In this document: positions 6,015 to 48,052 of the stretch, piece after piece
Numbering within the stretch: the first letter of the stretch is position 1
Layout of the letters: each line of letters opens with the position of its first letter
NCBI GenBank assembly: GCA_028279895.1
Contig: JANQMY010000071.1
Location: forward strand, 1 to 61,798
Reading direction: 5' to 3'
Origin: Alphaproteobacteria bacterium
Lineage (GTDB): Bacteria > Pseudomonadota > Alphaproteobacteria > JANQMY01
Length of the DNA stretch: 61,798 bases
The notes under the pieces: model-generated
The model's input: only the letters and a program-made list of their open reading frames with translations
Database searches by the model: none
Told to the model about the DNA's origin: nothing
Program-made: the position numbers and the translations under genes

Positions 6015-7472
6015 TCAAAGTTTACGTGTGCCGGTTAAAATGAAAAAGTAGTCTTTTGTAAACTCGATCGACCAATCTGCAAGGTACTTGTCTGCCATCG
6101 TCTCCAGCTCGACGCGTGTGAAATAGTGTTTAACCACACGAAATGTTCGTCCGTCTTTCAACGTTCTTAGTTGAATGTCATTTGAATGCGACAGACAATT
6201 TAGCTCGGTTGGATTGTAGTAGGAGTCTAGGATAGTTACTTGTCCGCCCGGCGGGGACAAGGCTTGGTCAATACGTTCGAAAAGTGCCTCAATTTTCCCT
6301 CTCGGAACGTGGCTAATTAGGAACCCGAAAAAACAAGCCGTAAACTTGCCTAGCAAAGCGTCCGGCAGATCTTGATAAATATCGATGATTAGTCCCTTTA
6401 TGCCGGTATTCTTGAAATTCTCGTCGAGCATTTTGGAGGAAGCATCTGTTGGGAGTATTTGGTTTTTACGTGCAAGTAATTTCGTCCATTTCCCTGTTCC
6501 AGCTGCAAATTCAATGATGCTCTGACTCTCGATTTTTTGGAGAACGCTTGCCACATGATCTACGTCCTTGGACCAGCGTTCGTTGAGGGTTTCGCCTTTA
6601 TCGTAAATGCCCTCGCGATCGTACCAGTCTTCGTACTCGGGGGCTCTCTCATTATAATATTCGAGCATTTCATTCGAAATATCACTGAGTGTCGCTGTCC
6701 TACCTACCAGAGTGTCAATGAGGTGGCGAGCAGCACTACGATCAACCGGCGACGTACCTGTTTGAATAAGCTGTCTAGCTACATGACTCGTTTCTACGAT
6801 CGATGCGAACAGCAAGTCATGACCAAATATGAGATGATCTACGCGCAACTCTCGTGCAGCATTAGTCTTCTCTTCGTCCAGGAGTGTCATAATGATTGAG
6901 AAATTTAGGTTGGGGTATTTCTCTATGACGGTCAGCATTAGGTTAGGGTTGTCACCGTGCAAAGCAACATCCGAAACTTCCGGAACATTGTTTAGCAAAT
7001 GGTCAATTTTTTCGCAGACGTGAGTTGCCGGATAGCCTCTGACCAAGCCGTTCGTGCGGGCGATCACTTTTCCAGCGAACCTTTCATCTACAAATGCGAC
7101 GCGCTCAGAAAATTGTTCGGAGGTAAGTAGATCTTGGTCGGACTCGTATAGCGCCGAGACTTTTGGAGTCCGCTCGTCTTCTACGCATACGGCATACGCA
7201 CCCATCTCCGACAATGAAGACAGCAGGTGTGCAAATTCACCTACGTCATTGGAGCCACTATCTATGTCTACGATTGCCGGAATTTGGCTTGACTTCAAGA
7301 TCCGTTCGATGATGAGCAACTTGTCGTCGATCCTTGCAGCATCTTCATCGGGAAGCCCAAAACAAGCCGCGGAAATTGAAAAACCACTGACCCAAATGCC
7401 AGCTCCACCTAATTGTTCAACTAGACTTGCTTCAAGCGGTGAGTGGACGCCTAAAACTATACTACTGGACAT
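6015..7472 (-). CDS. fusion of a PEP-mutase/isocitrate-lyase-superfamily domain and a class I SAM-dependent methyltransferase
   Basis: The N-terminal half is co-linear with PEP mutase family motifs (GIWVSGFSISAA, IPAIVDIDSGSND, AVCVEDERTPKVSAL). The C-terminal half has methyltransferase motif I (IIEFAAGTGKWT) and downstream motifs (FFGFLISHVP). Confidence 0.7.
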   Translation of the reverse strand: MSSSIVLGVHSPLEASLVEQLGGAGIWVSGFSISAACFGLPDEDAARIDDKLLIIERILKSSQIPAIVDIDSGSNDVGEFAHLLSSLSEMGAYAVCVEDERTPKVSALYESDQDLLTSEQFSERVAFVDERFAGKVIARTNGLVRGYPATHVCEKIDHLLNNVPEVSDVALHGDNPNLMLTVIEKYPNLNFSIIMTLLDEEKTNAARELRVDHLIFGHDLLFASIVETSHVARQLIQTGTSPVDRSAARHLIDTLVGRTATLSDISNEMLEYYNERAPEYEDWYDREGIYDKGETLNERWSKDVDHVASVLQKIESQSIIEFAAGTGKWTKLLARKNQILPTDASSKMLDENFKNTGIKGLIIDIYQDLPDALLGKFTACFFGFLISHVPRGKIEALFERIDQALSPPGGQVTILDSYYNPTELNCLSHSNDIQLRTLKDGRTFRVVKHYFTRVELETMADKYLADWSIEFTKDYFFILTGTRKL

Positions 7473-12188: not shown

Positions 12189-12199
12189 CGCAACTGAAT

Positions 12200-12937
12200 A
12201 TGGAACGTGCCCTCCCGATGCGCCGCGTTACCCCATTCTCGGGGCCACTTGAGACACATTCGACAATATTCGATAGCCCCTTAGTTCTAAGAGCGATGAT
12301 CATGAACGCGGGCGTCGTCAAAGTTCGAGGGTGGTTCGGTACCGAAGAAGAGTTTGTTGAGCTTGGTTGCCGGCTCGGTGCACTAGAGCGAGCCTCGCCT
12401 AAAGATTCGCGTCATTTAGGAAGACTCTTCAGAGTGAAATCGCGTCCGGGCGATTCAGTTGGTGTCGGTCGGTACTGGCATGCTGACGGCTTCGCAGGTA
12501 CAAGCGCACCGGCGCTGATAACCATATATCATGTTGTTAAGGGAACATCTTCTGTAAGCAACACATCTTTTGTCGATGGGTATGCCGCATGGTCAAACCT
12601 TAATAACCCACTTCGTGCTCTTATTTGCGATCGTTGGTGGGCTCACGCGAGTGGCTCCAGGCATCGGTTTGTTGTTGATCATCATAAACATCAATGTCCA
12701 ACTATCTCTGTGAACTTGGGAAAGATCTCGTCGATTCAGGGAATGAATGGCGTCGCTGTCAAGCGAACGGTATCAAGGATAGCGACAGCTTTAGATCTAG
12801 AGCCAAGGTATGTACACAGATGGACTCCAGGTGATGTTCTCCTCGTTGATAATCGTCGCATGTTGCACCGTGGCCCGGACAAAGTTGACCGAGAGCGGAT
12901 TCTATGGCGAACCTCGGTGATCAAGTATTCAATTTAG
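12200..12937 (+). CDS. TauD/TfdA-family Fe(II)/2-oxoglutarate dioxygenase-like protein
   Basis: H-x-D in RYWHADGF about 94 residues after the chosen ATG. Distal motif WTPGDVLLVDNRRMLHRG. The ORF-track start at 12101 overlaps the upstream gene, so I rejected it. Confidence 0.7.
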   Translation: MERALPMRRVTPFSGPLETHSTIFDSPLVLRAMIMNAGVVKVRGWFGTEEEFVELGCRLGALERASPKDSRHLGRLFRVKSRPGDSVGVGRYWHADGFAGTSAPALITIYHVVKGTSSVSNTSFVDGYAAWSNLNNPLRALICDRWWAHASGSRHRFVVDHHKHQCPTISVNLGKISSIQGMNGVAVKRTVSRIATALDLEPRYVHRWTPGDVLLVDNRRMLHRGPDKVDRERILWRTSVIKYSI

Positions 12938-12944
12938 AGGATAA

Positions 12945-13925
12945 TTGACGGCAAATACGATGCTCACAACGTCATCAAATCCAACTCCCCTCCTTGCGCT
13001 GGGAAGAGTGGGGCGACACGCACAAGTTTTTCTTAAAGATGAGTCTGTCCATCCGACGGGCACTTTTAAAGATCGGCTTTCTTCCGCTGCAGTTGGACGG
13101 TCCGATGGTGATGTACTGTTCGGTTCCATCAGCTACGGTAACACCGCTATCAGTTTCGCCCGCGCATGCGCCAAGCTATCGTGGGCGAGGTTTGTGGGCT
13201 TTGTCCCTCCTGACTTTGCAGCTTGGACCTTTGGTCCCTCTAGCACTGGCAGTTTCGCCACAGGGCAAGACTTCATAGATCAAATACGCTCGTATGGTGG
13301 CGCAATCCTTGAGGTAGACCTTTCAGAAGCAATCCTGGCCGACGATGATCTAGCTACTCTGGCCTGTGATGCTGGTCTCTTAAACGATAGTTGCTTTGTG
13401 AACGTAACGGAGGGACTGGAGTATCCTGCATACGGTTCAATTGCTTTGGAAGCACTCGAGCAGCTGGATGCGCCTCCAAATATCTGCGTTGTGCAGTTTG
13501 GAGCGGGGATCCTTGCGAACGAGATTAGAGACGTTTTCGAGCGCTTATCAAGTCAAACAGTCGTTATACCGATTAGCACACCTGATCCTCGTTCTTTAGC
13601 GCGCATGTTGTATGGACCCATTTGGCTCGACGTATTGTCGCTAGAGGCTGCGGGTACTAGCATGAGTAGGCACGCGTCACCGGATCGGACTGGCGTTATT
13701 CGCGATCCTTACGCCGTGTACATGGTTTCTGAAGATCAGATACAACAAGGATTAAGCATCGCGCGTGATTTTGGTATATCTGCAGAACCGTCCGGCTCAG
13801 CTGGTCTAGGATTTCTGGATGCGATCGAAACGATAGTGCCTAACTACGACCCGGAGACCGATCGAGTTCTTGTAATAAATACCGGCAATGGCATTGATCG
13901 GCTTACTGAACTCGAAAAGTCATGA
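12945..13925 (+). CDS. fold-type II PLP-dependent enzyme (cysteine synthase / threonine synthase / Trp-synthase-beta-like)
   Basis: Schiff-base lysine motif HPTGTFKDR. Also SISYGNTAISFA and the glycine loop QFGAGILANE. Confidence 0.75.
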   Translation: MTANTMLTTSSNPTPLLALGRVGRHAQVFLKDESVHPTGTFKDRLSSAAVGRSDGDVLFGSISYGNTAISFARACAKLSWARFVGFVPPDFAAWTFGPSSTGSFATGQDFIDQIRSYGGAILEVDLSEAILADDDLATLACDAGLLNDSCFVNVTEGLEYPAYGSIALEALEQLDAPPNICVVQFGAGILANEIRDVFERLSSQTVVIPISTPDPRSLARMLYGPIWLDVLSLEAAGTSMSRHASPDRTGVIRDPYAVYMVSEDQIQQGLSIARDFGISAEPSGSAGLGFLDAIETIVPNYDPETDRVLVINTGNGIDRLTELEKS

Positions 13926-14995
13926 GATTGATACACATAGATCCAACCGAACACCGAAAGCCACTCCCTCTTGTTGAGCTTGCTAACCTCGAGGCTTTGA
14001 TTCAACCGACCTTAGAGCAAATCGAGCCCGAGAACGGATCGGTCGCAACTTTCAGTGCAAATATCAAAGTCAAATTGTACAGCGACAGCGCTCATCTCCG
14101 TCAATTTTTTGCCCACAACTGGGGGAAAACGCTGACATCCAATGAGACGTCCCTGGGCGACGTGTGTGTTGTCGCACTCCGGTCCGATTTGGTGGACGGA
14201 GCACCAGAAATTCTGCCCGGGCGTCGATATGTTGATCCGGAAAGAAGAATTATTGTCAGCGTTGGTAGTGAATACTACGGGAACGTCAAAGTTTCAGTCA
14301 GAGGGTTGTGTTCGTCATTAGTTCGCCGAAAGAATTGTGGTGGTTTTTTGCACGGTGCATCAATGAATGTTGACGGGGCTGGAATCGTCGTCTGTGGAAC
14401 GTCTGGAGCGGGAAAAACAACGGCAACTCGAGCACTGATGGACTTTTACCCTGATGGGATAAGAATCATTAATGACGACTGGGGATGGGCCGATCACGAG
14501 ACAGCGACAATAGCGTTCACCGGTGAGCCGCGAATTCACATGAAATATCGTAGTGTGCGAGCCATTGCTCCGCATTTGAGGCCGTCACCAGCTTGTTATC
14601 TTTCCGAGAATTTTGAAGGAAATGAGGAAGATCCTCACGCTAGATTGCTAATTCGCCGAGAAGAGGTATTCGAATCGGGTGTTTCCGATTCTTCTTCATT
14701 CGATGGGTTAATCGTGATTTTGCGCGATGAATCAAAGGCGTTCTTTACGCGCCCCATGGAAGTGAGCGATCTGGATCTACTCGAGATCGCGGAATACTCA
14801 GCTTTCTATGATCGGCATGAGCGTTTTATGGATGGATCACTGCTGCTAGTTGATCAGGCTGATCTTGATTCAGAACGGCATCGATTTCGGCTCCTTCTAG
14901 AGAACATTCCTGCTGTTCTCGTAAACAACGTGGCGTCACCAAGACGCATAGCGCAAGAACTGCAGCTTCAGCTTGATCGCCTGGGAGTCCTGTAG
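13922..14995 (+). CDS. HPr-kinase C-terminal-domain-like P-loop kinase
   Basis: LHGASMNVDGAGIVVCGTSGAGKTTATRAL matches the HprK_C pattern (hG..v.v.G.GvLi.G.SG.GKS). Its ATG overlaps the upstream stop as ATGA at 13922-13925. Confidence 0.7.
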   Translation: MRLIHIDPTEHRKPLPLVELANLEALIQPTLEQIEPENGSVATFSANIKVKLYSDSAHLRQFFAHNWGKTLTSNETSLGDVCVVALRSDLVDGAPEILPGRRYVDPERRIIVSVGSEYYGNVKVSVRGLCSSLVRRKNCGGFLHGASMNVDGAGIVVCGTSGAGKTTATRALMDFYPDGIRIINDDWGWADHETATIAFTGEPRIHMKYRSVRAIAPHLRPSPACYLSENFEGNEEDPHARLLIRREEVFESGVSDSSSFDGLIVILRDESKAFFTRPMEVSDLDLLEIAEYSAFYDRHERFMDGSLLLVDQADLDSERHRFRLLLENIPAVLVNNVASPRRIAQELQLQLDRLGVL

Positions 14996-17280
14996 TGAAA
15001 CAGGACGGGCGACGAGTCGCTTTGTTGAAGAGCCGTCGACTCGCCATTGAGCTTGATCAGGCGTACGATGGCGGGTCAGTGCACGTGGTCAAACAGATAA
15101 AGTCTCTTTGTGCGAACGGTTACGAGGTGGACGCGTTTGCGAGAAGTGAGACCGGAAGAAACCAGCCTCCAGTTGAAATATCATCCAAGTTAAGAGTTTG
15201 GCATGTCGCGTTCACGCCCTGCGATTCGAAAGACTTTTTCGTTCGCGACCTTATTGAAGGTCGTAGTTTTGTTCAAAACGTCCTTGCGTCTTCTGGTTTC
15301 GCGGCGGCGCATTTTGATGCGATCCAAATTCATCACTGGACTTCAGGCGTGAACATTCATGAAGCACTTCCTGAGACGATTCCGATAGCATTTACTCCCC
15401 ACCTGCTGCCAACTGAAAAGGCCCTTGCCAACGGCGTGCCTCTTCCGAGTAGCGTGGTGGATGTTGAGCGAGGTTTGTTAGCCCGCGCGGATATCACGGT
15501 TGCTGTGTCTCGGGCAGAAGAACAGTCCTGTCGTCGTTTAGGGGGGCATCGCGTAAAACGAATAGCCAATGGTGTTAGCGACGCATTCTTCCGACTCCCG
15601 GTCTCCAGAAAGCCCACCTCAGGCGAAGCAGTAAGGCTGGGTAGTATTGGCCGTATGTGCGCACAGAAAGGCACAGACGTTTTGCTCGATGCAATGGAAC
15701 TCCTAGTCGCTCGAGGAGTTAATGCTTACCTTGACATTGTCGGTCCGTCTTACGGCGAGGACGAATTCGAGTGCAACATCAGACAGCGTCTTCTCGATCC
15801 CATGCTTTCAGGACGAGTTCGCTTGCTTGGTGCAGTCAGCCACGAATTACTCCCATCAATCGTTGCAGAGTGGCATGTCTACCTTCAGCCTTCTCGCTAT
15901 GAAAGCCAGGGAACCGCATTACTAGAAGCTATGGCGGCCAGCCGCTGCGTTGTAGCTACCTCATTGTCGGCAATAACAGAGTTTTTGAATGATCGCATCG
16001 GATTTCTCGTTCCCGCTCCTCCAGACGGAGAAGCGGTTGCGGAGGCAGTTTTCGATGCTCTCCAATCTTCAACGTGGGAGACTCAGGTTCGAGGTGCGCG
16101 TAACGCTGCAATGCCGTTTCGTTGGAAGCGGTCAACCAGCGAATTGTCCGAATGTCTGTCCGCCTTGATTGAAAGAGCAGATTGGCGCGACCGAAACAAG
16201 ACGGCTAAACTCAGCCACGATTTCCAGGAGCAAGGCCGGAAGATCGCACTAAAGATTGCAAAAGGCGTTCCTATCGCGGGAATTTTCCTCTTAGGCAGCG
16301 CTGCCCGCGGTGAGGTGCGCCCAGGTAGCGACATAGATTTGTTGATGTTGCAGGACGGTGGGCAACGATCTGATCAGGATTGGCGGTTTACACAGTTTGC
16401 GCCAGTCGACATTCGATGGGAAACCACAGAGTATGTCCATCGCTTGTGTGCGATGTCCAATGATGAGCTAGCCGATGCGGTGGCACAGCGACCACTGGTT
16501 GATTATCTATGTGGCGCGCGCGAACTAACATGCATTGGACAAGACTTGGCAGATGTTATAGCGCTGCTGCGGCAGCGACGATCCAGTAGTGAAGTTAAGT
16601 TCCTAGTCGCAAATCGAATGCTGGCACAGGCGAGTACGATTTTCGACAAAGCCGTACAATTAACCCATCAGGGTCTAATTGCTGATGCGCAAATCAAAAT
16701 TAACGCCGGCGCTCAGCTAATTCTACAAGCCTCGTTAGTCCAAAATGGTTGGATGATACAAGGCGCAAAACGTCGCTTGGAAGCTGCTGCGTCGTACGCC
16801 CCATTTTCTGTGTCAGTGCGACACGCCGCTTCGTTCTTGACGGCAGCTGTCGGTATTGATGGCGTTACATACGAGCACGCAAGACGACTGATCACTGCAC
16901 GGACACAAATGCGCGTGGAGCATGTTAAGTGCTTGGAAAAGCTTGGAGTGGATTCAACGGAGATTGCCATTGCTCGCCGTCACGCTCAAGGCGTGACTGA
17001 CTATTACTCCCCAGCGATTTCTGATGGGTACCTGAAGGGTTGCATCAATCACATCAAATCACTCTCGGGAGTTCCTTTGATGACTGCACATTATACAAGG
17101 TTGCTGAATCTTGACCCCAATGCGCCCGCTCAGTCTTTCTTGTCTTGTGCTGATATCTCGACGGAAGTGCAGAACCTCTGGCTGACGGTCGTGGACCCCC
17201 ATGAATTGGAGGCATTGTCCGAATTTGCGGCAATCGGGAGTCGATTCGCTCGAGAGCTTATACCGAGTGTAACCAACTAA
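14995..17280 (+). CDS. GT4-family glycosyltransferase fused to a nucleotidyltransferase (MNT/pol-beta-type) domain and helical C-terminal region
   Basis: GT-B signature YLQPSRYESQGTALLEAMAASRCVVAT. NTase signature LLGSAARGEVRPGSDIDLLML. The GTG start overlaps the upstream TAG as TAGTG at 14993-14997. Confidence 0.8.
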   Translation: MKQDGRRVALLKSRRLAIELDQAYDGGSVHVVKQIKSLCANGYEVDAFARSETGRNQPPVEISSKLRVWHVAFTPCDSKDFFVRDLIEGRSFVQNVLASSGFAAAHFDAIQIHHWTSGVNIHEALPETIPIAFTPHLLPTEKALANGVPLPSSVVDVERGLLARADITVAVSRAEEQSCRRLGGHRVKRIANGVSDAFFRLPVSRKPTSGEAVRLGSIGRMCAQKGTDVLLDAMELLVARGVNAYLDIVGPSYGEDEFECNIRQRLLDPMLSGRVRLLGAVSHELLPSIVAEWHVYLQPSRYESQGTALLEAMAASRCVVATSLSAITEFLNDRIGFLVPAPPDGEAVAEAVFDALQSSTWETQVRGARNAAMPFRWKRSTSELSECLSALIERADWRDRNKTAKLSHDFQEQGRKIALKIAKGVPIAGIFLLGSAARGEVRPGSDIDLLMLQDGGQRSDQDWRFTQFAPVDIRWETTEYVHRLCAMSNDELADAVAQRPLVDYLCGARELTCIGQDLADVIALLRQRRSSSEVKFLVANRMLAQASTIFDKAVQLTHQGLIADAQIKINAGAQLILQASLVQNGWMIQGAKRRLEAAASYAPFSVSVRHAASFLTAAVGIDGVTYEHARRLITARTQMRVEHVKCLEKLGVDSTEIAIARRHAQGVTDYYSPAISDGYLKGCINHIKSLSGVPLMTAHYTRLLNLDPNAPAQSFLSCADISTEVQNLWLTVVDPHELEALSEFAAIGSRFARELIPSVTN

Positions 17281-17411
17281 ATTCGTCACCCCACGCAAGA
17301 CTATCCCTTTCACGAAGGATTTGTGGAATACTTGACAAATGAAGATGGCAACTATGAAACCATCGTAGCTACGTCTAAAAGTCTTCCCCATAGGCGACTG
17401 TAAGAATACTA

Positions 17412-18185
17412 ATGATTTATGATTGGGATGAGATCTCCATACGAATCCTTAAGTGCTGTAACAAAGAGAATAGCACTCAAATTTGGTTAGTTAGACATGG
17501 GCAAACCGATTTCAATGTTTGTCGTGTTTTCTCGGGACAGTCGGAGGCTATGCTAACGCAAAGGGGGCTAACAGAAGCAAATAAACTGAGGAAACAGCTT
17601 CCAGAGGCAATTGACCAAATTTGGTGTAGCCCTCTTCAGCGTGCCCTCGACACTATGACACTCGCTTTCAGTCATGTTCCCCTAGAAAAAGTAGCCACAT
17701 ATGATGACACGGTGAATTTGGCTTTCCAAAAGATGTCGTTAGAAACTCGAATTGGTCATTTGGGTTCTCTTGCCTGGGTTAATGGGTCAAGCTCGGATAG
17801 ATCTTTTGAGGCTGTTCTCTCGAGAGTCCATATTGATTCACGATTCATGGAAATCTCTCTTGGGGATCTTGAGGGCAAACCATTTAGCGTTGTTACGGCC
17901 GGTGGCAACCACAGTTTAGACTACCGTCCTTCTGGCGGGGAAAGTTACAGGGAGTTTGGGCGGCGAGTGATGTCCGCGTTTTGCGAAGTTCTAGAATCGG
18001 CTGACGGAGCTTCATCGCCACACATCGTAATTTTCACCCATGCCGGTGTGATCAGAGTGCTGCAGTCCTTAGCTGGCCTGTATAGAACTTCGCAAGATAT
18101 GCTGTACAGTTCACCGCAAAACGCCAAACCAGTTCGACTTAGTGTTGCAAGTCTATCTATTCCGAGCTACTGGCGAATTGCATAG
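17412..18185 (+). CDS. histidine phosphatase family protein (phosphoglycerate-mutase-like), apparently intact
   Basis: IWLVRHGQTDFN (RHG motif), SPLQRALDT, GGESYREF and IFTHAGVIRV (second His). Confidence 0.8.
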   Translation: MIYDWDEISIRILKCCNKENSTQIWLVRHGQTDFNVCRVFSGQSEAMLTQRGLTEANKLRKQLPEAIDQIWCSPLQRALDTMTLAFSHVPLEKVATYDDTVNLAFQKMSLETRIGHLGSLAWVNGSSSDRSFEAVLSRVHIDSRFMEISLGDLEGKPFSVVTAGGNHSLDYRPSGGESYREFGRRVMSAFCEVLESADGASSPHIVIFTHAGVIRVLQSLAGLYRTSQDMLYSSPQNAKPVRLSVASLSIPSYWRIA

Positions 18186-18304: not shown

Positions 18305-21300
18305 TTAGCTCATCGTTTCGACAAATATACGATCTGGGACTCTTGAGCCAAACAACGTTTTCTCGCGTTTCGCTTTCCAGTGTTTCACGCGTTTCCCTAA
18401 CTCATCCTCAAGCGTTGGACCAAAGCGCTGGCTAAGCTCGCTTCTGCTATCTATGCTTTCTTCCCAAGTTTCATGTCTGCCATCAACGATCTTCAGAAAT
18501 AAGATACTGAAACGCCAGAAATCTTCCGCGGATTGTGCTTCGCACATTTGCCTAAACAAATGCTGAGACCATTGATCCCTGTTAGAGGCAAACTCGGCAG
18601 CCTTAGCTGCTTTTCCAATGAAGCCCTCTGCATCGGAAAATCGCTTGATGATCTGTCCCGCTTGCGGTGTGGTTTCCCCAAATCCATAGATCATCAGTCC
18701 ACGTGCTGCTTCGACCGGCCGTTGGCTACCGACCAGGTCACTTGCGTGCGCCTGCAGAAAAGACGATTTGCCGCTTTTCAGTGCGGCAAGCACTTCCAAG
18801 CCAAGCTGGTGATCCGTGCTGGCGTCGTTCAGCCGGCGAATGCGCAAAGAATCCATGTGCTCGTTGTCGGCACCCTGCCATATGTATAGTGCTTCTAGGG
18901 GAATTTCAGCTGTCCCGTTGATCAGGTTTACGAATGCACTGGCTTTTTCGAGACGCTCAAAGATTCGTTTTGCGAGTGCTGGATTCTTGTCGGATAGGAC
19001 ATACCCGAAACTCAAGCCAATGTTCTTGACCTGAGCAAGCTTGTGAGCGGGCAGCTCCAGAAATAGGTTGGCCAAGTGCGTAAAGTTAGCCGGGTCAGAA
19101 ACAAGCATGGCTTTGACGGCGTTGACACCCACATCCTCTATAACAATGCGCGCTTCGTCCCGCGTAAGCGACTGCTCAAATCGGTCAAATGCCTTGCGTG
19201 CTCTTTCTTGCCTCGCATCGATTTCCTCCGAGTTCTCGAAAATGCGTGAGGCGAATTCTTCGGGTAATAGTGCTTGTTCTGGCTCATCAATCCATTTGTG
19301 CGACGGGAGAGATGTACTCCATTTGCTAAGTGCTTGTTTTGCGGTGATATGAGGCGGACGAATGTCAATATCCAACACGCGCTTGATGGACGTGTCCAGC
19401 CGTTTGGCTACCGCTGCATTTGCCCCCACTCCTAAGTTTTCGACAGCTGCGCTGAAAAATTTTGGTGAAATTCGGTCTACGACATCGTCTGCTTCAAGAG
19501 CACCCGCAAGCCCCGCCTTTATGAGAATTTGTGACCCATACCATACTTCATAGTGATCTTTCTTTGGATCCAATACACTTGCGCGCCAATTGCTTTCCGC
19601 GAGATAGCTGAGCAAATCTCTGTCTTCTATCAACGCAATGACGCCAAAAGCTTTAGCACGCACTTCTGATGAACGACTTTGCGCGAGCTTCTTCAGATGT
19701 TGTTTTCCGTCAGGCAAAAAAAGTGTTTCAGAATGCCTCGCAAAAGTGAGAATTGTGGCCTGCTTGTCAGCATCATTGTCGCTCACTGCTTTAGTCAACA
19801 ATCGATCGAGCTGCTTCGGGTCGGCTGCTTTCAGAAGCGGTAAAGTCTTTATCAGTATCTTGCCGTCGCTCATTTCCGCCAATTGTTTCAACTGCTCATC
19901 ACCTGTCAGATGGGGGAGTGCTACTAGCAGTGAGTACTGGGAGTCGACCCATTGGTATCGGGTATCGTTTGAGTAATCCTGTTTTCTAACATGGAGCTCG
20001 TTGGCTCTATCAAGAAACCCTTTGATTGTTTCGTCATCAAGAATTGCTGTATGCGGCTCCAAATGGGCAACTGCTATACAGGACGTTGCGTCTGGAGGCC
20101 GGTTAAGAATGTCTATTGCCAAACGTCGGTGAACTTCTTTTGCTGTTCCCGCTGAGAAACGGGCGATGCCGGGAAGTGCATGCTGAAGAAACAGGTCCTC
20201 TGATCCTCTTGATCTGGATGATTGAACGGCTGACACATCTATCTGGCTGTATCGGACCGCGGTTTCATCAATTTTGTCTGGTCTGGATGAAAATGGATCG
20301 CATGGGTCGTTCGGGCAGTATTGTTCGACAAGGCGCCAGCTTGTAGGTCTTTCTCTTTCTTTTAACAGCCCTGAAAGCAACTCGTTGGCTTGGTTTCCAT
20401 CTTCAGCTGCGCCGGTTGCGCGTAGGACTGCTACGTAAGCCCACTTAGCGTTTTTTGAAGCTGTCTCTTCTTTTATTATCGCTGATGCGGCGAGCAGCTT
20501 TGTGCGAGCGTTTGCCCAGTCCACGTTATTGAAACGGATCAGTGACTCGAAATTTTCGAATGATGCCCACGGGTTCGCGTTCAAGCTCTGTGAGTAAGCC
20601 ATAGCAACAAAAGCTTCGCTGAAACTTGAGAGCGGCATACCAGCAAGAAGTCTGATTGCCTCGTCAAACAAAGAGCTTGGGTCAATCAGATCATCGCGGA
20701 TCATTTTCTTTTCAAGAAATGTCTGCTCCTTCTTCGGCAGGGATGCCAATGTGGAAGCAAGCTCAAGCTCTTTACTTTTTTTGCACTCCGCTATCTCCTC
20801 TTCGCTCTTGTTGTGGGCGCTCAGTAGGGAGAGTTCAGGCACAAGCGAGTAGTATCGGAGCCATTTGTCAACTCGGCCGTTGATGACTTTTAAGCATTGG
20901 GGAGTGTCACGTGCATCTCTGAGAGCCGATCGGAGCCATTCATAGTTCTCGGCCCTATTGTCTGAAACCGCAAGACTAAATAAAGCCTGCATTGCCGCAT
21001 CGGTGGCTTTGCTCACGGCAAGAGCGAATGCAGGATAGACGGTACCGTCAATGTTCTGCAGATGGACAAATGATTTGAAAAGAGCCATTTTGATTTCATC
21101 TGTACACCCCTTATCGACACAGGCAATCATAAGCGCTGCGAATACCGCGTTAGCAGCTTTGTCCAGAGCACCAATTGGCTCAATAAGTTGATCCAAAGAC
21201 TCGGCGATGTTTTTCTGATTACGCTCAGTAGCTTGCACAGCATTGATAATGGCTAGCCCCAATGCCACGTTCAATCCGTCTTCTGAAAGTGTATACGAGC

Positions 21301-22927
21301 CTGAGATGTCTGGTAGCGCCTGGAAGAAGCGCCCTTCAGACGCTGCTAGCAAATCAGATGACAGACTGAATCCTGAATTGGAGCCGTTCAGGTCTACCTC
21401 AAATATCAGGCTACCTTCGCGCTCCTGAGCGCTGATCCGATTGATGATTTCTGAAGCGTGCCTAGTAAGCCGAGCTACAAAGTCTTTTGGGTGTTCTGCC
21501 CCAGAACCAATTCGGGCCGCGACGCGAATATGCTCAAAGAGCAAGCTCTCAACACTTAGCTCCGAAAAATTCTTAATCTGCTCAGTGTTGAGTAATTCGG
21601 CCGCAATGGAAAGTAGTCGCGGGTTTTTTAGGCTATTATGAACCCGGGGCGTAATACTGTCACCATTGACATCCAGACGCTTGAGTAGCTGATTCAACTG
21701 GGCGTTTGTCCATTCCGGAACTTGTACTGTCTCAATCTCAGTATGAAGATGGGTTTCTATATAGTCGCGGAAGTATCCTTCCCTTGCTGTGACAACAAGT
21801 TGACCGCCAATATCGTTCAGGACAGCACTAGCGCTATCAAGCCATCTTACCCAGTTGATCTTTGGATTCTGGTTTATTCCATCAATCAACAATATCAACC
21901 GTAGCGCGCGACTTTTTCTGTCTACTTTCCACCGTTCGAAACGTCTTCGCCATCTTTCTTTTTTGTATTCCTGGGCGCTATCTGATGTTTGCTCGATCAG
22001 CCGGTCAACTAGGAAGGACTCGAGCTCAACAATGGGCTGTTTGGGAGGAAGGTCGGAGGCTGGAATGACAAGCGTGACGGGGCGGTCTGGTATGCTCATC
22101 CAACCTTGAGCAAACAACCACGATTTCCCACACCCTTCTGGGCCGGTTATTGCAACAGTCTTATCGCTTGCGGTACTGAAGGCTGCGTTCTCCAATCTCG
22201 CAAGTAATTGAGGTCGATCAAGAAGAGGTAATCGCGCATCTGCAAAGGGCGAAAGTGTTTGCTTAAACACCTGTTTTGCGCGGGATTTGTCAGAGAACGC
22301 ACGCTTTAGCCAATCCTGATTCTTCTCAATCGCCATTGGCAAACCGAGTGTCGGGTCTTCCAGAAGCTCTTTTAAACTTCGAGCAGCACGGCCAAAATCT
22401 TCATGCTGCCGGATTAGCTCAAGGGCCGCTAACGTCTTTTGTGTTACGTCAGCACCCTTAGTGTTGTTGGCAATAAATCCAACGCATTCGTGGGCGGCCA
22501 TAGCGCAGGCGCATGCGAGAGGAGGGATGTTTGAAGTGTCCGGCCAATCCAAGACGATGTACGAGACCCCAACTCTTTCAAATGCTGATTTTAGAGTCTG
22601 TGAAAGTTGCGTGTCCAATCCGACTGTCGCACCAAGTATCCAAACATCTGGTATGGATGTGCTGCCGATGAGTGCTGTAGCTTTGCTCTGCACTCTCTCT
22701 TTAGGAATGGGCCCAGTGTATAACTTTGCTTCAAATGAAACGTGGCTCTTCTGGTCATTGGATTCCCCATCTCGGCCATCTTGGAGTCCGGCACTCGCTA
22801 TTCTGAATGGGTGTCCTGTTATTTTCTCGAGAACAGCGGCCAGTAACCCCTCGAAACCGTTTTGTCCTGTTGAACTTAAATTGCATAAGGCTCGTTTGAG
22901 ATCGTTTAGGGCGATTTCAGGTTTCAT
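18305..22927 (-). CDS. 1540-aa protein with an N-terminal Mrr-like PD-(D/E)xK nuclease domain, a P-loop (STAND/NACHT-like) NTPase and a long alpha-helical repeat region
   Basis: N-terminus FEGLLAAVLEKITG...GLQDGRDGE...VSFEAKLY fits the restriction-endonuclease pattern (D...E-x-K). Walker A is VAITGPEGCGKSW and Walker B is LRLILLIDGINQ. More than 1000 aa of helical, HEAT/ARM-like sequence follows. Confidence 0.8.
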   Translation of the reverse strand: MKPEIALNDLKRALCNLSSTGQNGFEGLLAAVLEKITGHPFRIASAGLQDGRDGESNDQKSHVSFEAKLYTGPIPKERVQSKATALIGSTSIPDVWILGATVGLDTQLSQTLKSAFERVGVSYIVLDWPDTSNIPPLACACAMAAHECVGFIANNTKGADVTQKTLAALELIRQHEDFGRAARSLKELLEDPTLGLPMAIEKNQDWLKRAFSDKSRAKQVFKQTLSPFADARLPLLDRPQLLARLENAAFSTASDKTVAITGPEGCGKSWLFAQGWMSIPDRPVTLVIPASDLPPKQPIVELESFLVDRLIEQTSDSAQEYKKERWRRRFERWKVDRKSRALRLILLIDGINQNPKINWVRWLDSASAVLNDIGGQLVVTAREGYFRDYIETHLHTEIETVQVPEWTNAQLNQLLKRLDVNGDSITPRVHNSLKNPRLLSIAAELLNTEQIKNFSELSVESLLFEHIRVAARIGSGAEHPKDFVARLTRHASEIINRISAQEREGSLIFEVDLNGSNSGFSLSSDLLAASEGRFFQALPDISGSYTLSEDGLNVALGLAIINAVQATERNQKNIAESLDQLIEPIGALDKAANAVFAALMIACVDKGCTDEIKMALFKSFVHLQNIDGTVYPAFALAVSKATDAAMQALFSLAVSDNRAENYEWLRSALRDARDTPQCLKVINGRVDKWLRYYSLVPELSLLSAHNKSEEEIAECKKSKELELASTLASLPKKEQTFLEKKMIRDDLIDPSSLFDEAIRLLAGMPLSSFSEAFVAMAYSQSLNANPWASFENFESLIRFNNVDWANARTKLLAASAIIKEETASKNAKWAYVAVLRATGAAEDGNQANELLSGLLKERERPTSWRLVEQYCPNDPCDPFSSRPDKIDETAVRYSQIDVSAVQSSRSRGSEDLFLQHALPGIARFSAGTAKEVHRRLAIDILNRPPDATSCIAVAHLEPHTAILDDETIKGFLDRANELHVRKQDYSNDTRYQWVDSQYSLLVALPHLTGDEQLKQLAEMSDGKILIKTLPLLKAADPKQLDRLLTKAVSDNDADKQATILTFARHSETLFLPDGKQHLKKLAQSRSSEVRAKAFGVIALIEDRDLLSYLAESNWRASVLDPKKDHYEVWYGSQILIKAGLAGALEADDVVDRISPKFFSAAVENLGVGANAAVAKRLDTSIKRVLDIDIRPPHITAKQALSKWSTSLPSHKWIDEPEQALLPEEFASRIFENSEEIDARQERARKAFDRFEQSLTRDEARIVIEDVGVNAVKAMLVSDPANFTHLANLFLELPAHKLAQVKNIGLSFGYVLSDKNPALAKRIFERLEKASAFVNLINGTAEIPLEALYIWQGADNEHMDSLRIRRLNDASTDHQLGLEVLAALKSGKSSFLQAHASDLVGSQRPVEAARGLMIYGFGETTPQAGQIIKRFSDAEGFIGKAAKAAEFASNRDQWSQHLFRQMCEAQSAEDFWRFSILFLKIVDGRHETWEESIDSRSELSQRFGPTLEDELGKRVKHWKAKREKTLFGSRVPDRIFVETMS

Positions 22928-23787: not shown

Positions 23788-26700
23788 GTGACAACTAATG
23801 CCGCTACAGATGACGAGTTCGAATTAGAAGGTTGGGTCCGCACACGTATAGAGGCCTTACGTCCCAAACTGCTGGACCTGACGCGCAAAAACCCACTCAT
23901 CTCGACCAAATTAACACCCCGTTCAAACTCCTATGTCCGAGTGGTCGACGAACTGCCCGACGTGCTGTCATTTGAGCTTAGTAATCAAAAGAGCATGCGG
24001 TTCGTTGCATTGCCGCCACTCGATCTCGATCCCAAGGACGAGCTTCGGCCCGATTTTCGCGTCGCACTGGCCGAAGCGCGCCGCACCGACGAGATTTACT
24101 TGACAGCGATCAAGGAAATTGAGAGTGGGACCGATGACGCGCAAGAGACAGTGCGGCGTCTTGAACGCGAACTGAAGGATCGCGTTCGAGAGAGTTTGAG
24201 CATGCCTCCACGGCAGACTGGCGCTGATATCTCACTCGCCCAGCATGCAAAGCTGCATGCAATATCGCCGTCATATGATTTGCCAGATCCGATCGATGAA
24301 CACCACGATGGTCGCCATAGAGACAGTGACATCCAGACGCTTCTCTTAGCCGACGACCTCGAAAGGAAGATGACCGGCATAACGACAAAATGCCGGACAT
24401 GGTTACAGGAAACCGGCATCAACGTGCTGCACGCGGCGTTTGGATTTCTCGAATGGCAAGATGAAAACTCTCGTCGCAGTGCTCTTGCACCTCTGGTTCT
24501 GATGCCGGTTGGGATAACAAAAAACAAAACGCCGGAGGGACCCGAATTTTGGGTCAACGGCCTGGGCGATTCCAGTGAATCCAACCTCGTGCTCGCTGAG
24601 ATGATGCGCGCAGATTACGGCATCGAACTCCCGAAATTTTCGGAGGGGTCAATCGAGGACTACCTGGCGGAAGTCGCTGCGATCCAGCCACATAATCTGA
24701 AATGGAAGGTGCGCCGGCAAGTCGCCTTCGGTGTTTTTCCGTCGGCCCGCATGGCGATGTATCATGATCTCGATACCTCGAAGACCTCCCTCCACGCCAA
24801 GGAATTGGTGAAGCAGCTTCTTGGCGGCTCAGAGTCGACCGAGGCCTCGCCGTATGCCGATGAATATGACGTGGATACTCCGGAAATAGAAGCCAAGATT
24901 CCATGCCTGGTGATGGACGCCGATTCATCGCAACTAAGCGTCATTGCGGACATCGCCGATGGGCGCAATCTCGCCGTGGAAGGCCCGCCGGGAACTGGCA
25001 AATCGCAAACGATCGTCAATACCATCGCTGCAGCGGTTGCAGATGGCAAGAAAGTCTTATTCGTTGCAGAGAAAATGGCCGCCCTAGAAGTAGTGAAATC
25101 CAGGTTGGAAGCGGTTGGTCTTGGAGAGTTTGTCCTCCCATTGCAAGCGGAACGCTCCACGCGGGACCAGGTGATTTCATCTGTCAGAGAACGGATGGAC
25201 ATAGAAACACCGCACGCAGAGCCGGCCTATGAGTCGAAACTCGAGCAGTTCAAGGCTGTCCGAAGTGAACTAGCTGCGTATATCGATGTGATTTCCTCCC
25301 CCTACGGTGACACCGGACTTAAAGTCTATGATGTCCTCGGTAAAGCCATGTGGTCGAATGATGTGCTGAAGGGGCGTCCCGACATATTTCTTAGGCCACC
25401 CATCAACTCCCCGGATACTTTTGACAGAACACGCATCGAAACGGTGCGACAGGCGGGCGATCAACTGGATACAGCAAGCATTGAAGCGCATGAGGCATCG
25501 GTGTATTGGCGCGGCCTAGACATAGATAGCGCTGACCGGTTCACACTCGAGCAGATTTCGACACTCGCGGCGGCAGCAATGGAATCATTTGAAGCAGCCG
25601 CCCAAAAGCGGGAAAAGCTTCGAGAGAGGCATATCGATCCTGAACTTTCAAGCGAGGGTATCACCCTTATTGAAAACGCTCTCGAAAGCCTCGAACAAGA
25701 GGTTTCAAAATGTGACTCAGCGCTCATCGTGCGCCTTGTAAGATCCGGCCGCGTCCCGACCGTCGAAGACTTTATTGAGACCTGCAACAAGTACCAGGGT
25801 GTTCTTGGAAAGCTTAAGACGCTGGTTTTAGAACCCTCCGATGATACACTTGCCCAGCAAATACGTAAAATTCACACAATATGCCGTGAGAACGAAATTC
25901 ACGACCTCGACCTGGGCGCGCTTGAGCGCCGGATCGAGTCGGACCGGCGTGAGCTGTTGTCGTTGAAAAAAATCGACAAATGCCTGTCTGACCTGCCACC
26001 AGACTTTCTTGATACGGATAGCCTCACTATCGAAGCTATCCGAACAGCTCACGCACTTGTTTCGAATGCCCCTCAGAGAACACTTGCGTTGCGGACCGCC
26101 ACGAATGCTGATCCTGCGGCTGCCATCGTCATCCAGCAGACGGCCGAGTCCGGCCGGAGATTGTGCGAAGAAAAGGCCAAGCTTGAATCGGAGTTGATTG
26201 TTCCTGCTGATATCACGGCTACGGAGCTCGCCGGACATGCTGCCACGTTGCGTGATGCGGGTCCTTTTTCATTTTTCTCCCCCACCCATAGAACCGCAAA
26301 GCGCCTTCTGCGCACGCTGTCCCGGACAGGCCGCGTAAGAAAGGAAGACGGGATCAGAAGACTTCAAGCCTTGGCTGATTGGAAGGCGTCGGAATCGAAA
26401 TTCTTAGGCGATGAACAGGCGAAGGCGTGTTTTGGCATACATTTCCGAGGCATAGAAACTGACTTCGATGCATTCGAGAAGCTTGGCCGGTTCTATGAGG
26501 AGATCGATCAGCGTCTTAAGGGCACGACCAACCGCAAACTCCGCCATCTTTTGAAAGAAGGTGATTTTGATGAAATCCAATCTCTTCCCGAACTGCCCGA
26601 AAGCCAATGGGCGGGAAAGGTATCCGAGCTCTCTGGCAGGCTCGGCGAACTGGAGGCCCGCATTGATGAACTTGAGGCCGCATGTGAAAAACTCAAGGAG

Positions 26701-28788
26701 TTATCGGGATGTTTTCTGGCACCAGCCCAGATACGCACAGACTCATTAGCAGAGCTTGCTGAGCAAATTGAGGTCAATGCAGAACGTCAGCGGAAACTCG
26801 ATAGTAGCAGCACTGTTGAGGACATCCTTGGCGATCGGTTCAAAGGTGCGAACACCGCGACGGACGACCTTTCCCGTGATCTTGCGGTAGCTCAAACAGT
26901 CCTTTCGCAAACGCCCTATACTGATGAAATTCTCGCGCAGATCGAATTCGAGGCCATTATGCCCTGCCGCGCGGCATTGCGCATCGTGCAAGAACACGAC
27001 CTGCGGGCCGATGAGGCGATCGAACCTCTCTGTCATCACACACACATTCCACAAGCGCATTTCACGGACGGACGAAATCATCAACAGGTGGCCGCTTTTC
27101 TGGAGGCCGCCATTGATGACCACTCCGGTCTGCAGGCACACGCCAAATATGCCCGCGCCCGTCGCCGCGTTGATGAACTGGATTTTGGTTGGGCGACGAA
27201 AGCGCTTCTCGGTCAGGAACACGCCTTAAAGGATTTTGGTCGCGTCATCGAGGCTTCCGTCATCCGGTCAATGGCGCTTCACGTTATGAGCATCTACGGG
27301 GTCGCCCTGGACAAGTATCCGGGGACACAGCTTGATGCGCTTCGCGCGAAACTTGCTAGGCTCGATAAGCAAATCATCCGATTGTCCCGTCAACAGTTAC
27401 GAGCTGTCGTAGCAAGCAAGGCCCAGCCAATACCTGGTGTAGGCTCCGGACCGAAATCGCGTTGGACAGAATTGTCTTTGCTTGAAAACGAGACCAGCAA
27501 GAAAAAGCGCTATATTTCAGTACGTGATTTGACACAACGCGCTGGCCGTTCCTTGCAGGAACTTAAGCCGTGCTGGATGATGTCGCCATTGGCCGTGGCA
27601 CAGTATCTGCCCGCCGGCAAGCTCTCCTTTGACCTGTGTATCATCGACGAAGCGTCCCAAATGCGCCCGGAAGATGCAATCGGCGCCCTTGCCCGTTGTG
27701 GACAAGCGATGGTCGTCGGTGACACCAATCAGCTTCCACCGTCGAACTTTTTCCAGAAGATGCTGGATGATGGCGACGATGAAGACGACGATGCCTTAGT
27801 TGACGAAGAATCGATACTTGAAATAGCGAACGCCCAATTCCGCCCGTCCCGGCGGTTGCGGTGGCACTATCGCTCGCAACACTCTGGCCTCATCCGTTTT
27901 TCCAATGAACTAGTGTATCACAACGATCTCATCATTTTTCCATCTCCATCGGAACAGCAATCGGATATGGGCGTGTCATTGGTTCCGGTGGCCGGACGAT
28001 ACCGGTCCGGTGTGAATCCTGACGAAGCACAAGCTATTGTCTCGGAGGCCATTCGTTTCATGCGAACCTATCCGGATCGTTCTCTGGGAATTGTTACGCT
28101 CAATCAAAAGCAGCGGGATCTGCTGATTGATGAAATGAACTGCGCCCTCGACCAGGATCCGACAGCGGCATCCTATGTGGAAAACTGGATGACGCGTAAT
28201 GACGGGCTCGAATCTTTCTTCATCAAGAATCTAGAAAATGTTCAGGGTGATGAACGAGACGTCGTCTTCATCGGTACTGTATACGGCCCTGAAGAGCTCG
28301 GCGGCCCCGTCATGCAACGCTTCGGACCCATCAATGGTAAAGCGGGGCGGCGAAGACTTAACGTTCTTTTCTCACGTGCCAAAAAACAGATTGTGACGTT
28401 TTCCTCGATGAATCCGTCTGATATCCGGTCAGATGAAAACTCCAACCCAGGAACCTACATGCTCAAGCGATGGCTAGAGTACTCCGCGAGCGGAATTCTC
28501 GAAGCCACCGATCAGGCGTTCTCAAGCACAGATTCGGACTTTGAGGATTACGTCGTCCAACAGTTAAAAGCGATAGGTTGCGAGCCGGTGCCACAGGTTG
28601 GAGCTGCGGGGTACTTCATTGATATCGGCGTGAAACACCCGGAATGGCCGTACGGCTATATCTTGGCGGTAGAATGCGACGGGGCGAGCTACCATTCGTG
28701 CCGTTCCGCACGGGACCGTGATCGCTTACGGCAAGAGGTTCTTGAGCGTCTCGGTTGGAAATTTCACAGAATCTGGTCGACGGACTAG
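23788..28788 (+). CDS. DUF4011-type Upf1/DNA2-like superfamily-1 helicase with C-terminal DUF559/Vsr-like endonuclease domain, ended by an in-frame TAG
   Basis: Helicase motifs are GPPGTGKSQTIVN, IIDEASQM, VVGDTNQLPP, RWHYRSQH, NVQGDERDVV and NVLFSRAKKQ. The C-terminal nuclease-like block is YFIDIGV...AVECDGASYHS...RDRLRQEVLERLGWKFHRIWSTD. Confidence 0.9.
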   Translation: MTTNAATDDEFELEGWVRTRIEALRPKLLDLTRKNPLISTKLTPRSNSYVRVVDELPDVLSFELSNQKSMRFVALPPLDLDPKDELRPDFRVALAEARRTDEIYLTAIKEIESGTDDAQETVRRLERELKDRVRESLSMPPRQTGADISLAQHAKLHAISPSYDLPDPIDEHHDGRHRDSDIQTLLLADDLERKMTGITTKCRTWLQETGINVLHAAFGFLEWQDENSRRSALAPLVLMPVGITKNKTPEGPEFWVNGLGDSSESNLVLAEMMRADYGIELPKFSEGSIEDYLAEVAAIQPHNLKWKVRRQVAFGVFPSARMAMYHDLDTSKTSLHAKELVKQLLGGSESTEASPYADEYDVDTPEIEAKIPCLVMDADSSQLSVIADIADGRNLAVEGPPGTGKSQTIVNTIAAAVADGKKVLFVAEKMAALEVVKSRLEAVGLGEFVLPLQAERSTRDQVISSVRERMDIETPHAEPAYESKLEQFKAVRSELAAYIDVISSPYGDTGLKVYDVLGKAMWSNDVLKGRPDIFLRPPINSPDTFDRTRIETVRQAGDQLDTASIEAHEASVYWRGLDIDSADRFTLEQISTLAAAAMESFEAAAQKREKLRERHIDPELSSEGITLIENALESLEQEVSKCDSALIVRLVRSGRVPTVEDFIETCNKYQGVLGKLKTLVLEPSDDTLAQQIRKIHTICRENEIHDLDLGALERRIESDRRELLSLKKIDKCLSDLPPDFLDTDSLTIEAIRTAHALVSNAPQRTLALRTATNADPAAAIVIQQTAESGRRLCEEKAKLESELIVPADITATELAGHAATLRDAGPFSFFSPTHRTAKRLLRTLSRTGRVRKEDGIRRLQALADWKASESKFLGDEQAKACFGIHFRGIETDFDAFEKLGRFYEEIDQRLKGTTNRKLRHLLKEGDFDEIQSLPELPESQWAGKVSELSGRLGELEARIDELEAACEKLKELSGCFLAPAQIRTDSLAELAEQIEVNAERQRKLDSSSTVEDILGDRFKGANTATDDLSRDLAVAQTVLSQTPYTDEILAQIEFEAIMPCRAALRIVQEHDLRADEAIEPLCHHTHIPQAHFTDGRNHQQVAAFLEAAIDDHSGLQAHAKYARARRRVDELDFGWATKALLGQEHALKDFGRVIEASVIRSMALHVMSIYGVALDKYPGTQLDALRAKLARLDKQIIRLSRQQLRAVVASKAQPIPGVGSGPKSRWTELSLLENETSKKKRYISVRDLTQRAGRSLQELKPCWMMSPLAVAQYLPAGKLSFDLCIIDEASQMRPEDAIGALARCGQAMVVGDTNQLPPSNFFQKMLDDGDDEDDDALVDEESILEIANAQFRPSRRLRWHYRSQHSGLIRFSNELVYHNDLIIFPSPSEQQSDMGVSLVPVAGRYRSGVNPDEAQAIVSEAIRFMRTYPDRSLGIVTLNQKQRDLLIDEMNCALDQDPTAASYVENWMTRNDGLESFFIKNLENVQGDERDVVFIGTVYGPEELGGPVMQRFGPINGKAGRRRLNVLFSRAKKQIVTFSSMNPSDIRSDENSNPGTYMLKRWLEYSASGILEATDQAFSSTDSDFEDYVVQQLKAIGCEPVPQVGAAGYFIDIGVKHPEWPYGYILAVECDGASYHSCRSARDRDRLRQEVLERLGWKFHRIWSTD

Positions 28789-47962: not shown

Positions 47963-48052
<90 letters not shown>

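Follow-up and report, generated by a model that had tools for sequence, protein, structure and literature searches.

What does a 1540-residue protein that standard annotation leaves unnamed do for the bacterium that carries it? The question is raised by a single gene on the minus strand of contig JANQMY010000071.1 (assembly GCA_028279895.1, an Alphaproteobacteria bacterium), of which we analyzed the whole stretch of 61,798 nucleotides, positions 1 to 61,798, hereafter the window. A preliminary description, made from the letters of the window, had proposed that the gene product joins a nuclease effector, an NTPase and a sensor in the manner of the Avs-type STAND defense proteins. Our results support this proposal. 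The protein has these three modules in this order, its first 640 residues find their best structural matches in Avs4 and Avs3, relatives exchange the effector for others ahead of the same NTPase and sensor, the gene stands alone, and it lies in a defense and mobile-element context. We consider it probable that its product is an antiviral STAND NTPase of the Avs type that acts on its own, in which recognition of a phage by the sensor would switch on the nuclease.

Is the reading frame a real gene? The open reading frame (ORF), as listed and translated, runs for 1540 codons from an ATG start, with a Shine–Dalgarno-like GGGAG 9 nt upstream. Its product aligns end to end (99 to 100% coverage) with more than 60 database proteins of 1500 to 1600 amino acids (aa) at 26 to 46% identity, and because the homologues align over its full length, the ORF is on this comparison no chance reading frame but an intact gene that belongs to a real family. 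A scan for promoters and terminators around the gene found no excess over shuffled sequence. The motifs on which the preliminary description had leaned are all in place—DGRDG at aa 50–54, FEAKLY at 65–70, GPEGCGKS at 262–269 and LILLIDG at 344–350—and we counted the invariance of these and other residues across 66 aligned homologous sequences.

What kind of domain lies at the N terminus? Structures were predicted with AlphaFold2 from the family alignment as two models, one of aa 1–640 and one of aa 600–1540. The first is confident, with a predicted local distance difference test (pLDDT) of 89.7, a predicted template-modeling score (pTM) of 0.87 and a pLDDT of ~75–94 across aa 1–130. By DSSP, the N-terminal domain consists of a helix (25–37), four strands (41–43, 54–58, 61–68 and, after a second helix at 76–87, 95–100), a third helix (106–118) and a last strand (122–126). 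As modeled, the fold of aa 1–130 is the canonical alpha-beta-beta-beta-alpha-beta core of the PD-(D/E)xK nucleases, and E26, D53, E66 and K68 stand on the elements where such enzymes are expected to carry them (helix alpha-1, the start of strand beta-2 and strand beta-3). With this core fold and with all four residues invariant in 66 of 66 sequences, the domain scores as a PD-(D/E)xK nuclease, which is what the preliminary description had proposed for its first ~130 residues. It is also the most conserved module of the protein (48% mean pairwise identity, vs. 31–38% in the sensor).

The narrower likeness to Mrr_cat is seen in homologues. Of 26 N-domain fragments of the family, each scanned on its own in Pfam with a limit of E ≤ 10, six matched Mrr_cat (PF04471; best E = 2.2e-4), and no other family was matched by more than one fragment, so that the label “Mrr-like” is well supported at the level of the family and of the modeled structure; for the window protein’s own N-domain, which scores nothing in Pfam, it is not demonstrable from the sequence alone. 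From a word-indexed search with the profile of the N-domain came only pieces of this same family, and no new architectures.

The N-domain is followed by a helical linker, in which N203, W206, A217, Q223 and P227 are conserved even in relatives with another effector, and then by the NTPase. Sequence libraries see little of the latter: Pfam gave sub-threshold P-loop matches only, the best of them NACHT (PF05729) over aa 257–360, at 19.5 bits against a gathering cut-off of 26.7, followed by weaker matches to AAA_22 and AAA_16, and nothing for aa 1–235 or aa 400–1540. Across the family, matches to the Pfam entries NACHT, NB-ARC and NPHP3_N are likewise weak. Searches of all Protein Data Bank (PDB) sequences with phmmer and with a profile of 67 family sequences found a weak match to the P-loop of Apaf-1 alone, and neither the profile nor phmmer found an Avs chain even at E ≤ 10.

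Structure is more informative. A Foldseek search of the PDB with the model of aa 1–640 returned 167 matches at E ≤ 1e-3, the top one being EcAvs4 bound to portal protein (8dgf; E = 1.6e-9, 649 alignment columns for the 640-residue query), the second Avs3 (8dgc; E = 6.7e-7), and after them NLRC4, NLRP7, CED-4, Dark and Apaf-1. The features by which STAND proteins are recognized are all present: a Walker A motif of the form GxxxxGK[ST], a Walker B motif of the form hhhhD, a nucleotide-binding domain followed by helical and winged-helix domains, and structural likeness to known STANDs. The conserved R382 is sensor-1-like, and H490 in the winged-helix region is a candidate for the MHD-type histidine. 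The NTPase announced by the preliminary description from its two Walker motifs, A and B, is therefore a conserved domain of STAND fold, closest to Avs4 and then to Avs3.

The Walker B motif departs from the NACHT pattern. An Asn–Gln pair stands at the acidic positions of the NACHT signature DGxDE, and almost every one of ~150 family representatives has DG[LIV]N[QE]; this replacement suggests that ATP may be bound as an assembly cofactor, with slow hydrolysis or none. In KpAvs8, too, ATPase motifs are described as degenerate (PMC13581612).

What might the remaining two-thirds of the protein sense? The second model, of about 50 helices, is again confident (pLDDT 92.5, pTM 0.92), which agrees with the helical sensor of the preliminary description. 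Its best matches in the PDB are karyopherin-beta, importin and CAND1 (E = 1.8e-5 to 1e-3, TM-scores 0.15–0.26), and Avs3 and Avs4 chains, 8dgf included, are absent from its top 50 fold matches. As modeled, the sensor is a HEAT/ARM-type, karyopherin-like solenoid, not TPR and not of the Avs3 or Avs4 type. The preliminary description had been unable to fit a TPR consensus to the C-terminal region because the repeats are HEAT/ARM-like in the fold search; its figure of more than 1000 residues of helical repeats is reached only if the helical and winged-helix subdomains (aa 403–570) are counted, the solenoid proper (aa 571–1540) comprising ~970. Identity within the solenoid is 31–38% across three segments, and aa 901–1200 are the least conserved part of the protein (31%). 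Within it lies the near-invariant motif DPCDP, which sits in a ~50-aa non-helical insertion (coil at about model residues 256–309, a block with pLDDT 65).

Relatives of the protein show a modular design. Both nuclease motifs are present in 102 of roughly 125 full-length representatives, and a minority has the same NTPase and sensor behind another N terminus. Judging from motifs read in the sequences, the alternatives include a module with a trypsin-like His/Asp/Ser pattern (P0218), one of ~500 aa with a Rossmann-like GxGxxG (P0202 and P0209) and a helical module with a hydrophobic N terminus (P0146, P0185, P0215 and P0223); P0063 carries yet another, possibly Cap4-like. Pfam names none of the alternative N-terminal modules of P0063, P0146, P0185, P0202, P0215 and P0218. 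In P0018 and P0213, an extra helix-turn-helix (HTH) precedes the nuclease. The swap point, seen in P0063, P0146, P0185, P0202, P0215, P0218 and P0223, falls just before a helix at aa ~198–227 (“ANxxWL...FGQxLAP”) that is conserved in all variants, and therefore aa 1 to ~195 behave as an exchangeable effector cassette.

Database entries of ~240 aa that seem to consist of the N-domain only are pieces of disrupted full-length genes. At one such locus (L118, 7001–11551), P0097 (238 aa) is followed by an overlapping ORF of 541 aa and then by one of 693 aa; this and similar entries mean that decayed or frameshifted copies of the family exist, or else assembly errors. On a plasmid of Sphingobium yanoikuyae (L116, 7950–12488), a 1512-aa “NACHT domain-containing” protein, WP_228167503.1, aligns with aa 13–626 of the query only, at 24% identity. 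It has the same effector and NTPase with a C terminus too divergent to align, a sign that the superfamily is wider and that its sensors have diversified.

How large is the family, and who carries it? An exhaustive phmmer search with aa 235–1434 found representatives of 839 clusters (50% identity) up to E = 1e-3; the number falls to 561 with a limit of 1e-10 and to 303 with 1e-30. Of the best 150, almost all measure ~1500–1550 aa, with ~235 aa ahead of the NTPase. Accessions in the family include WP_071479601.1, WP_353874167.1, WP_142854538.1 and WP_393941970.1. We also ran a degenerate pattern at the DNA level, derived from the NPR...LLFEH motifs, on 185,579 species genomes and verified the matches by tblastn: 106 genomes (~0.06%) matched, all of them with members of the family, the best being 43% identical to the window protein. 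The hosts are Alpha-, Beta- and Gammaproteobacteria, Acidobacteriota, Desulfobacterota, Binatia, Spirochaetia, Planctomycetota and Actinomycetota, together with one Nitrospirota plasmid; six full-length copies are on plasmids. Sequenced phages hold no homologue, which speaks neither for nor against an Avs-type model.

Features of the 1540-aa gene and its product, with their positions in the window
Feature	Position	Strand	Evidence
Whole gene, 1540 codons and stop; single-gene system	18305..22927	-	Aligns over its full length with 66 homologues
Exchangeable N-terminal effector cassette (nuclease core and first linker helices), aa 1–195	22343..22927	-	Relatives with swapped N termini rejoin the alignment just before the helix at aa ~198–227
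PD-(D/E)xK (Mrr_cat-like) nuclease core, aa 16–130	22538..22882	-	DSSP of the AlphaFold2 model; conservation; Mrr_cat in homologues
E26, putative metal-binding acidic residue, helix alpha-1, GFEG motif	22850..22852	-	Invariant, 66/66
D53 (in DGRDG), “D” of PD-(D/E)xK, start of beta-2	22769..22771	-	Invariant, 66/66
E66-A-K68 (in FEAKLY), “(D/E)xK”, beta-3	22724..22732	-	E66 and K68 invariant, 66/66
Helical linker between nuclease and NTPase, aa 131–235	22223..22537	-	AlphaFold2 helices, 136–221
STAND nucleotide-binding domain, aa 236–402	21722..22222	-	Sub-threshold Pfam NACHT, AAA_16, AAA_22; Foldseek Avs4, Avs3, NLRC4, CED-4, Apaf-1
Walker A GPEGCGKS, aa 262–269	22121..22144	-	G262, G265, G267 and K268 invariant
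Walker B LILLIDGINQ, aa 344–353	21869..21898	-	D349 and G350 66/66; N352 65/66; Q353 59/66
DGINQ within Walker B, aa 349–353	21869..21883	-	N–Q pair where NACHT DGxDE has acidic residues
Helical and winged-helix domains, aa 403–570	21218..21721	-	AlphaFold2 secondary structure, conservation; NPR 435–437 invariant, H490 conserved
HEAT/ARM-type alpha-solenoid, putative sensor, aa 571–1540 (~970 aa)	18308..21217	-	AlphaFold2, Foldseek
DPCDP, near-invariant motif (in “YCxTDPCDPxS”), aa 874–878	20294..20308	-	Conservation lists

How could these modules work together? At rest, the HEAT-like solenoid would keep the protein monomeric and its nuclease inactive. Binding of a ligand from the phage—most likely one of its conserved proteins, recognized by shape—would open the winged-helix/sensor region and release this autoinhibition, whereupon the ATP-bound NTPase domains would oligomerize; a tetramer, the form taken by Avs3, Avs4 and Avs7, is the probable product. 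Gathered in this way, the Mrr-like PD-(D/E)xK domains at the N termini would become an active nuclease, and its indiscriminate degradation of DNA would abort the infection. The residues for nuclease catalysis and ATP binding are invariant in the family, and both activities are predicted on that basis; the protein trigger, the oligomeric state, the non-specific cleavage of DNA and the abortive infection are expected by analogy with characterized Avs proteins. In SeAvs3, EcAvs4 and SeAvs7, the N-terminal nucleases become active on tetramerization (PMC13601566), Avs3 and Avs4 are phage-activated non-specific DNases, and an Mrr domain followed by a STAND and a long C terminus is the architecture of KpAvs2 (PMC11564622).

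A more far-reaching form of this model can be put forward only tentatively, and we think it somewhat doubtful. The HEAT/karyopherin-like sensor with its invariant DPCDP loop might respond to a trigger new to Avs proteins, be it a class of phage protein or a non-protein cue, and the protein might act as a one-shot switch that binds ATP and does not cycle, its hydrolysis being crippled by the DGxNQ motif. If so, bacterial pattern recognition would gain a sensor fold and a trigger that are both new to it.

Does the surrounding DNA fit a defense function? We compared 12 loci as a qualitative sample, not as a statistical test. Defense genes lie within 10 kb in 7 of the 12 and mobile-element genes in 7 of the 12. 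Homologues are adjoined by an integrase, methylases and an Hhe-similar helicase with a WYL protein (L001); by an MmeI-type restriction–modification (RM) enzyme, NERD and nSTAND (L004); by a Gabija-like pair of OLD-TOPRIM and UvrD (L114); by a type I RM system, HipA and an integrase (L115); by a GTPase conflict system, HigB and transposases (L113); on the Sphingobium plasmid (L116), by VapBC, an AAA protein with RloB, a recombinase and Tn3; and elsewhere (L003 and L112) by transposases or reverse transcriptases. An all-against-all BLAST of the ORFs within 4 kb of the gene in the 12 loci found no conserved neighbor, and the gene is therefore taken to be a single-gene system.

In the window itself, the adjoining divergent neighbor is a known defense gene, a 1666-aa Hhe/PDC-S37 helicase-nuclease (23788–28788, plus strand; PADLOC E = 0) with DUF4011, AAA_11/AAA_12 and a C-terminal MTES_1575 restriction endonuclease domain. 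A functional pairing of the two genes was considered and rejected, since a similar helicase occurs in just one other locus (L001) and no neighbor is conserved. On the 3' side of Hhe lie a GreA/B-like ORF (28819–29268) and, on the opposite strand, a DUF4268 ORF (29429–30424). The G+C content of the window is ~0.47–0.55 up to ~47 kb and 0.58–0.63 in the last 14 kb, with the step at a tRNA-Ser(GGA) gene (47963–48052, minus strand), and the low-G+C block contains a tyrosine recombinase (1948–2865), a serine recombinase (34806–36491) and an N6/N4 DNA methylase (38355–40037). Positions 1–48052 are probably an integrated genomic island whose other end is outside the window.

The same island holds another effector–NTPase–sensor gene, a second STAND of 1013 aa (2959–6000, plus strand) with an alpha/beta-hydrolase (PGAP1/DUF676-like), NB-ARC/nSTAND1 and C-terminal TPR. 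Next to the 1540-aa gene, a co-directional string on the plus strand (10368–18185) encodes a 606-aa protein, a TauD-like dioxygenase, a pyridoxal phosphate enzyme, an HprK/PEPCK-like P-loop kinase, a 761-aa GT4 glycosyltransferase–nucleotidyltransferase fusion and a histidine phosphatase. The fusion has weak matches to PF20706 (“GT4 in conflict systems”) and to PDC-S09, and the string might form a conflict-linked pathway that concerns a small molecule or a modification. A 485-aa fusion of a phosphoenolpyruvate mutase-like domain and an S-adenosylmethionine methyltransferase (6015–7472, minus strand) is an unusual pairing within the island. A 323-aa ORF (31307–32278, minus strand) matches VasI of type VI secretion, and no other type VI secretion genes are annotated among the scanned ORFs near it.

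How secure is an antiviral, Avs-type function against these and other data? Several observations weigh against it. PADLOC (2023; 5027 defense models, including Avs1–5 and NLR-like systems) gave no match to the protein at E ≤ 0.1, and NCBIfam gave none; the protein’s own N-domain has no Pfam match at E ≤ 10, and its putative correspondence to the Avs4 nuclease is read from the whole-query alignment, in which TMq is only 0.41. None of the solved Avs sensors matches that of the window protein, which is not TPR-like. Three of the 12 loci (L002, L005 and L117) have ordinary surroundings with neither defense nor mobile-element neighbors, and in L005 the homologue stands inserted by itself, with a deaminase gene on one side and guaA on the other. 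Phage resistance and activation by a phage component are predicted by analogy with characterized Avs proteins.

The main rival explanation accepts a defense STAND with a nuclease and changes what sets it off: the solenoid would respond to something that is not a structural or replicative protein of the phage. Nucleic acids and small molecules are candidates, and so is a host protein whose integrity it guards. A HEAT/karyopherin-like sensor, as opposed to the TPR-like one of most Avs proteins (PMC13581612), would suit such a cue, the near-invariant DPCDP loop could be a specific ligand or metal site, and there are precedents in that no phage-encoded activator was found for Avs22–24 and bNACHT20 and that SeAvs7 incorporates the host EF-Tu (PMC13581612). 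All Avs families with a known trigger, however, sense a phage protein via an extended helical-repeat surface (PMC13581612, PMC13601566), a solenoid of ~970 aa is of a size typical for protein recognition, and no known nucleotide- or small-molecule-binding sensor domain is recognizable in the sequence, so that we hold a non-protein or guarded-host trigger to be unlikely. Less likely again is a main role in competition between mobile elements or in the stabilization of islands and plasmids, as opposed to protection of the host from phage. The family is indeed carried on plasmids and on islands with integrases or transposases, and toxin–antitoxin genes are frequent neighbors, but defense islands normally sit on such elements too; no partner gene is conserved, and the tripartite design with its swapped effectors is a signature of pattern-recognition immunity, unlike addiction modules, which need a labile antidote.

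Least probable of all, and in our view hardly tenable, is a housekeeping or regulatory STAND (a MalT/AfsR-like signaling scaffold) or a type IV (Mrr-like) restriction enzyme under NTP control that recognizes modified DNA directly. Restriction enzymes dependent on modification are the classical setting of Mrr_cat domains, P0018 and P0213 have their extra N-terminal HTH, and the three homologues in ordinary surroundings lie among metabolic genes. Yet a gene present in ~0.06% of species genomes from unrelated phyla is incompatible with a housekeeping role, regulatory STANDs carry DNA-binding outputs and not invariant nuclease triads, Pfam detects no DNA-binding or modification-reading domain in the window protein, and the exchange of the nuclease for non-nuclease effectors argues against a dedicated restriction enzyme. 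The preliminary description had named a housekeeping scaffold found apart from mobile or defense loci as the outcome that would count against its proposal; what we found are defense or mobile-element contexts and a very patchy distribution. An Avs-type antiviral function remains the reading that we prefer.

Why has such a family gone unnamed? The named homologues are all annotated as “hypothetical” or at best as “NACHT domain-containing,” and standard annotation is blind to the 1540-aa protein. Because the family is invisible to Pfam, NCBIfam and PADLOC and its sensor is unlike those of solved Avs proteins, standard censuses of defense systems would miss it. The searchable literature text contained nothing that names or characterizes it. 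It may already have been catalogued computationally by Lee et al. 2026, who reported 589 STAND clades, 198 of them defense-associated, with 684 structural clusters of sensors and the numbered families Avs7–24, and whose seed collection used Mrr-based searches (PMC13581612). Naming the family, building a hidden Markov model for it and finding its trigger would extend the catalogue and yield a single-gene system, compact and built around a nuclease, from Proteobacteria of the environment. Such progress would be incremental: the logic is well established, and the 2026 survey reports at least 90 such families.

How does the protein compare with systems that are already known? The comparison with the Avs1–5 and bNACHT clades that the preliminary description had called for came out divided: aa 1–640 have their best fold match in Avs4 and Avs3, there is no sequence match in PADLOC, and the sensor is unlike those of Avs3 and Avs4. 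The portal-sensing EcAvs4 (8DGF) is nevertheless the nearest relative in structure, being the best match to aa 1–640, with the same order of modules, a helical sensor of ~1000 aa and a near-identical length (chain of 1541 aa vs. 1540 aa); Gao et al. are said to have described its effector in 2022 as Mrr-like. The two differ in that no sequence similarity is detectable between them (none in PADLOC at E ≤ 0.1, none by phmmer or profile against the PDB at E ≤ 10) and in that the window sensor is HEAT/karyopherin-like, with Avs4 outside its top 50 fold matches. The effector of EcAvs4 is an N-terminal nuclease activated by tetramerization (PMC13601566). KpAvs2 shares the N-terminal Mrr-family endonuclease, the central STAND and the long C-terminal sensor, and brings about abortive infection via DNA degradation (PMC11564622); it differs in being encoded in an operon with two associated genes, whereas no neighbor is conserved here, and PADLOC gives no Avs2 match. 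SeAvs3 (8DGC) and SeAvs7 are likewise STANDs with N-terminal PD-(D/E)xK-type nucleases activated by tetramerization (PMC13601566, PMC13581612), but their effectors are Cap4-like, not Mrr-like, and their sensors TPR-like.

Beyond the Avs proteins, NLRC4, NLRP7, Apaf-1, CED-4 and Dark have in common with the window protein the core fold of STAND nucleotide-binding, helical and winged-helix domains. These eukaryotic NLRs and AP-ATPases have a CARD or PYD effector and an LRR or WD40 sensor where a nuclease and a HEAT-like solenoid stand here, and the DGxDE of NACHT contrasts with DGxNQ. Karyopherin-beta, importin and CAND1, the best fold matches to the sensor, are alike as alpha-solenoids are in general, and TM-scores of 0.15–0.26 at ~10% identity are no evidence of homology or of shared function. 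Placed among these systems, the window protein represents a rare Avs-type family, of a known kind of architecture and itself uncharacterized and unnamed by annotation tools. Avs proteins are bacterial counterparts of the NLR immune receptors, and with every new type of sensor described so far, another conserved phage protein has come to light as the molecular pattern recognized.

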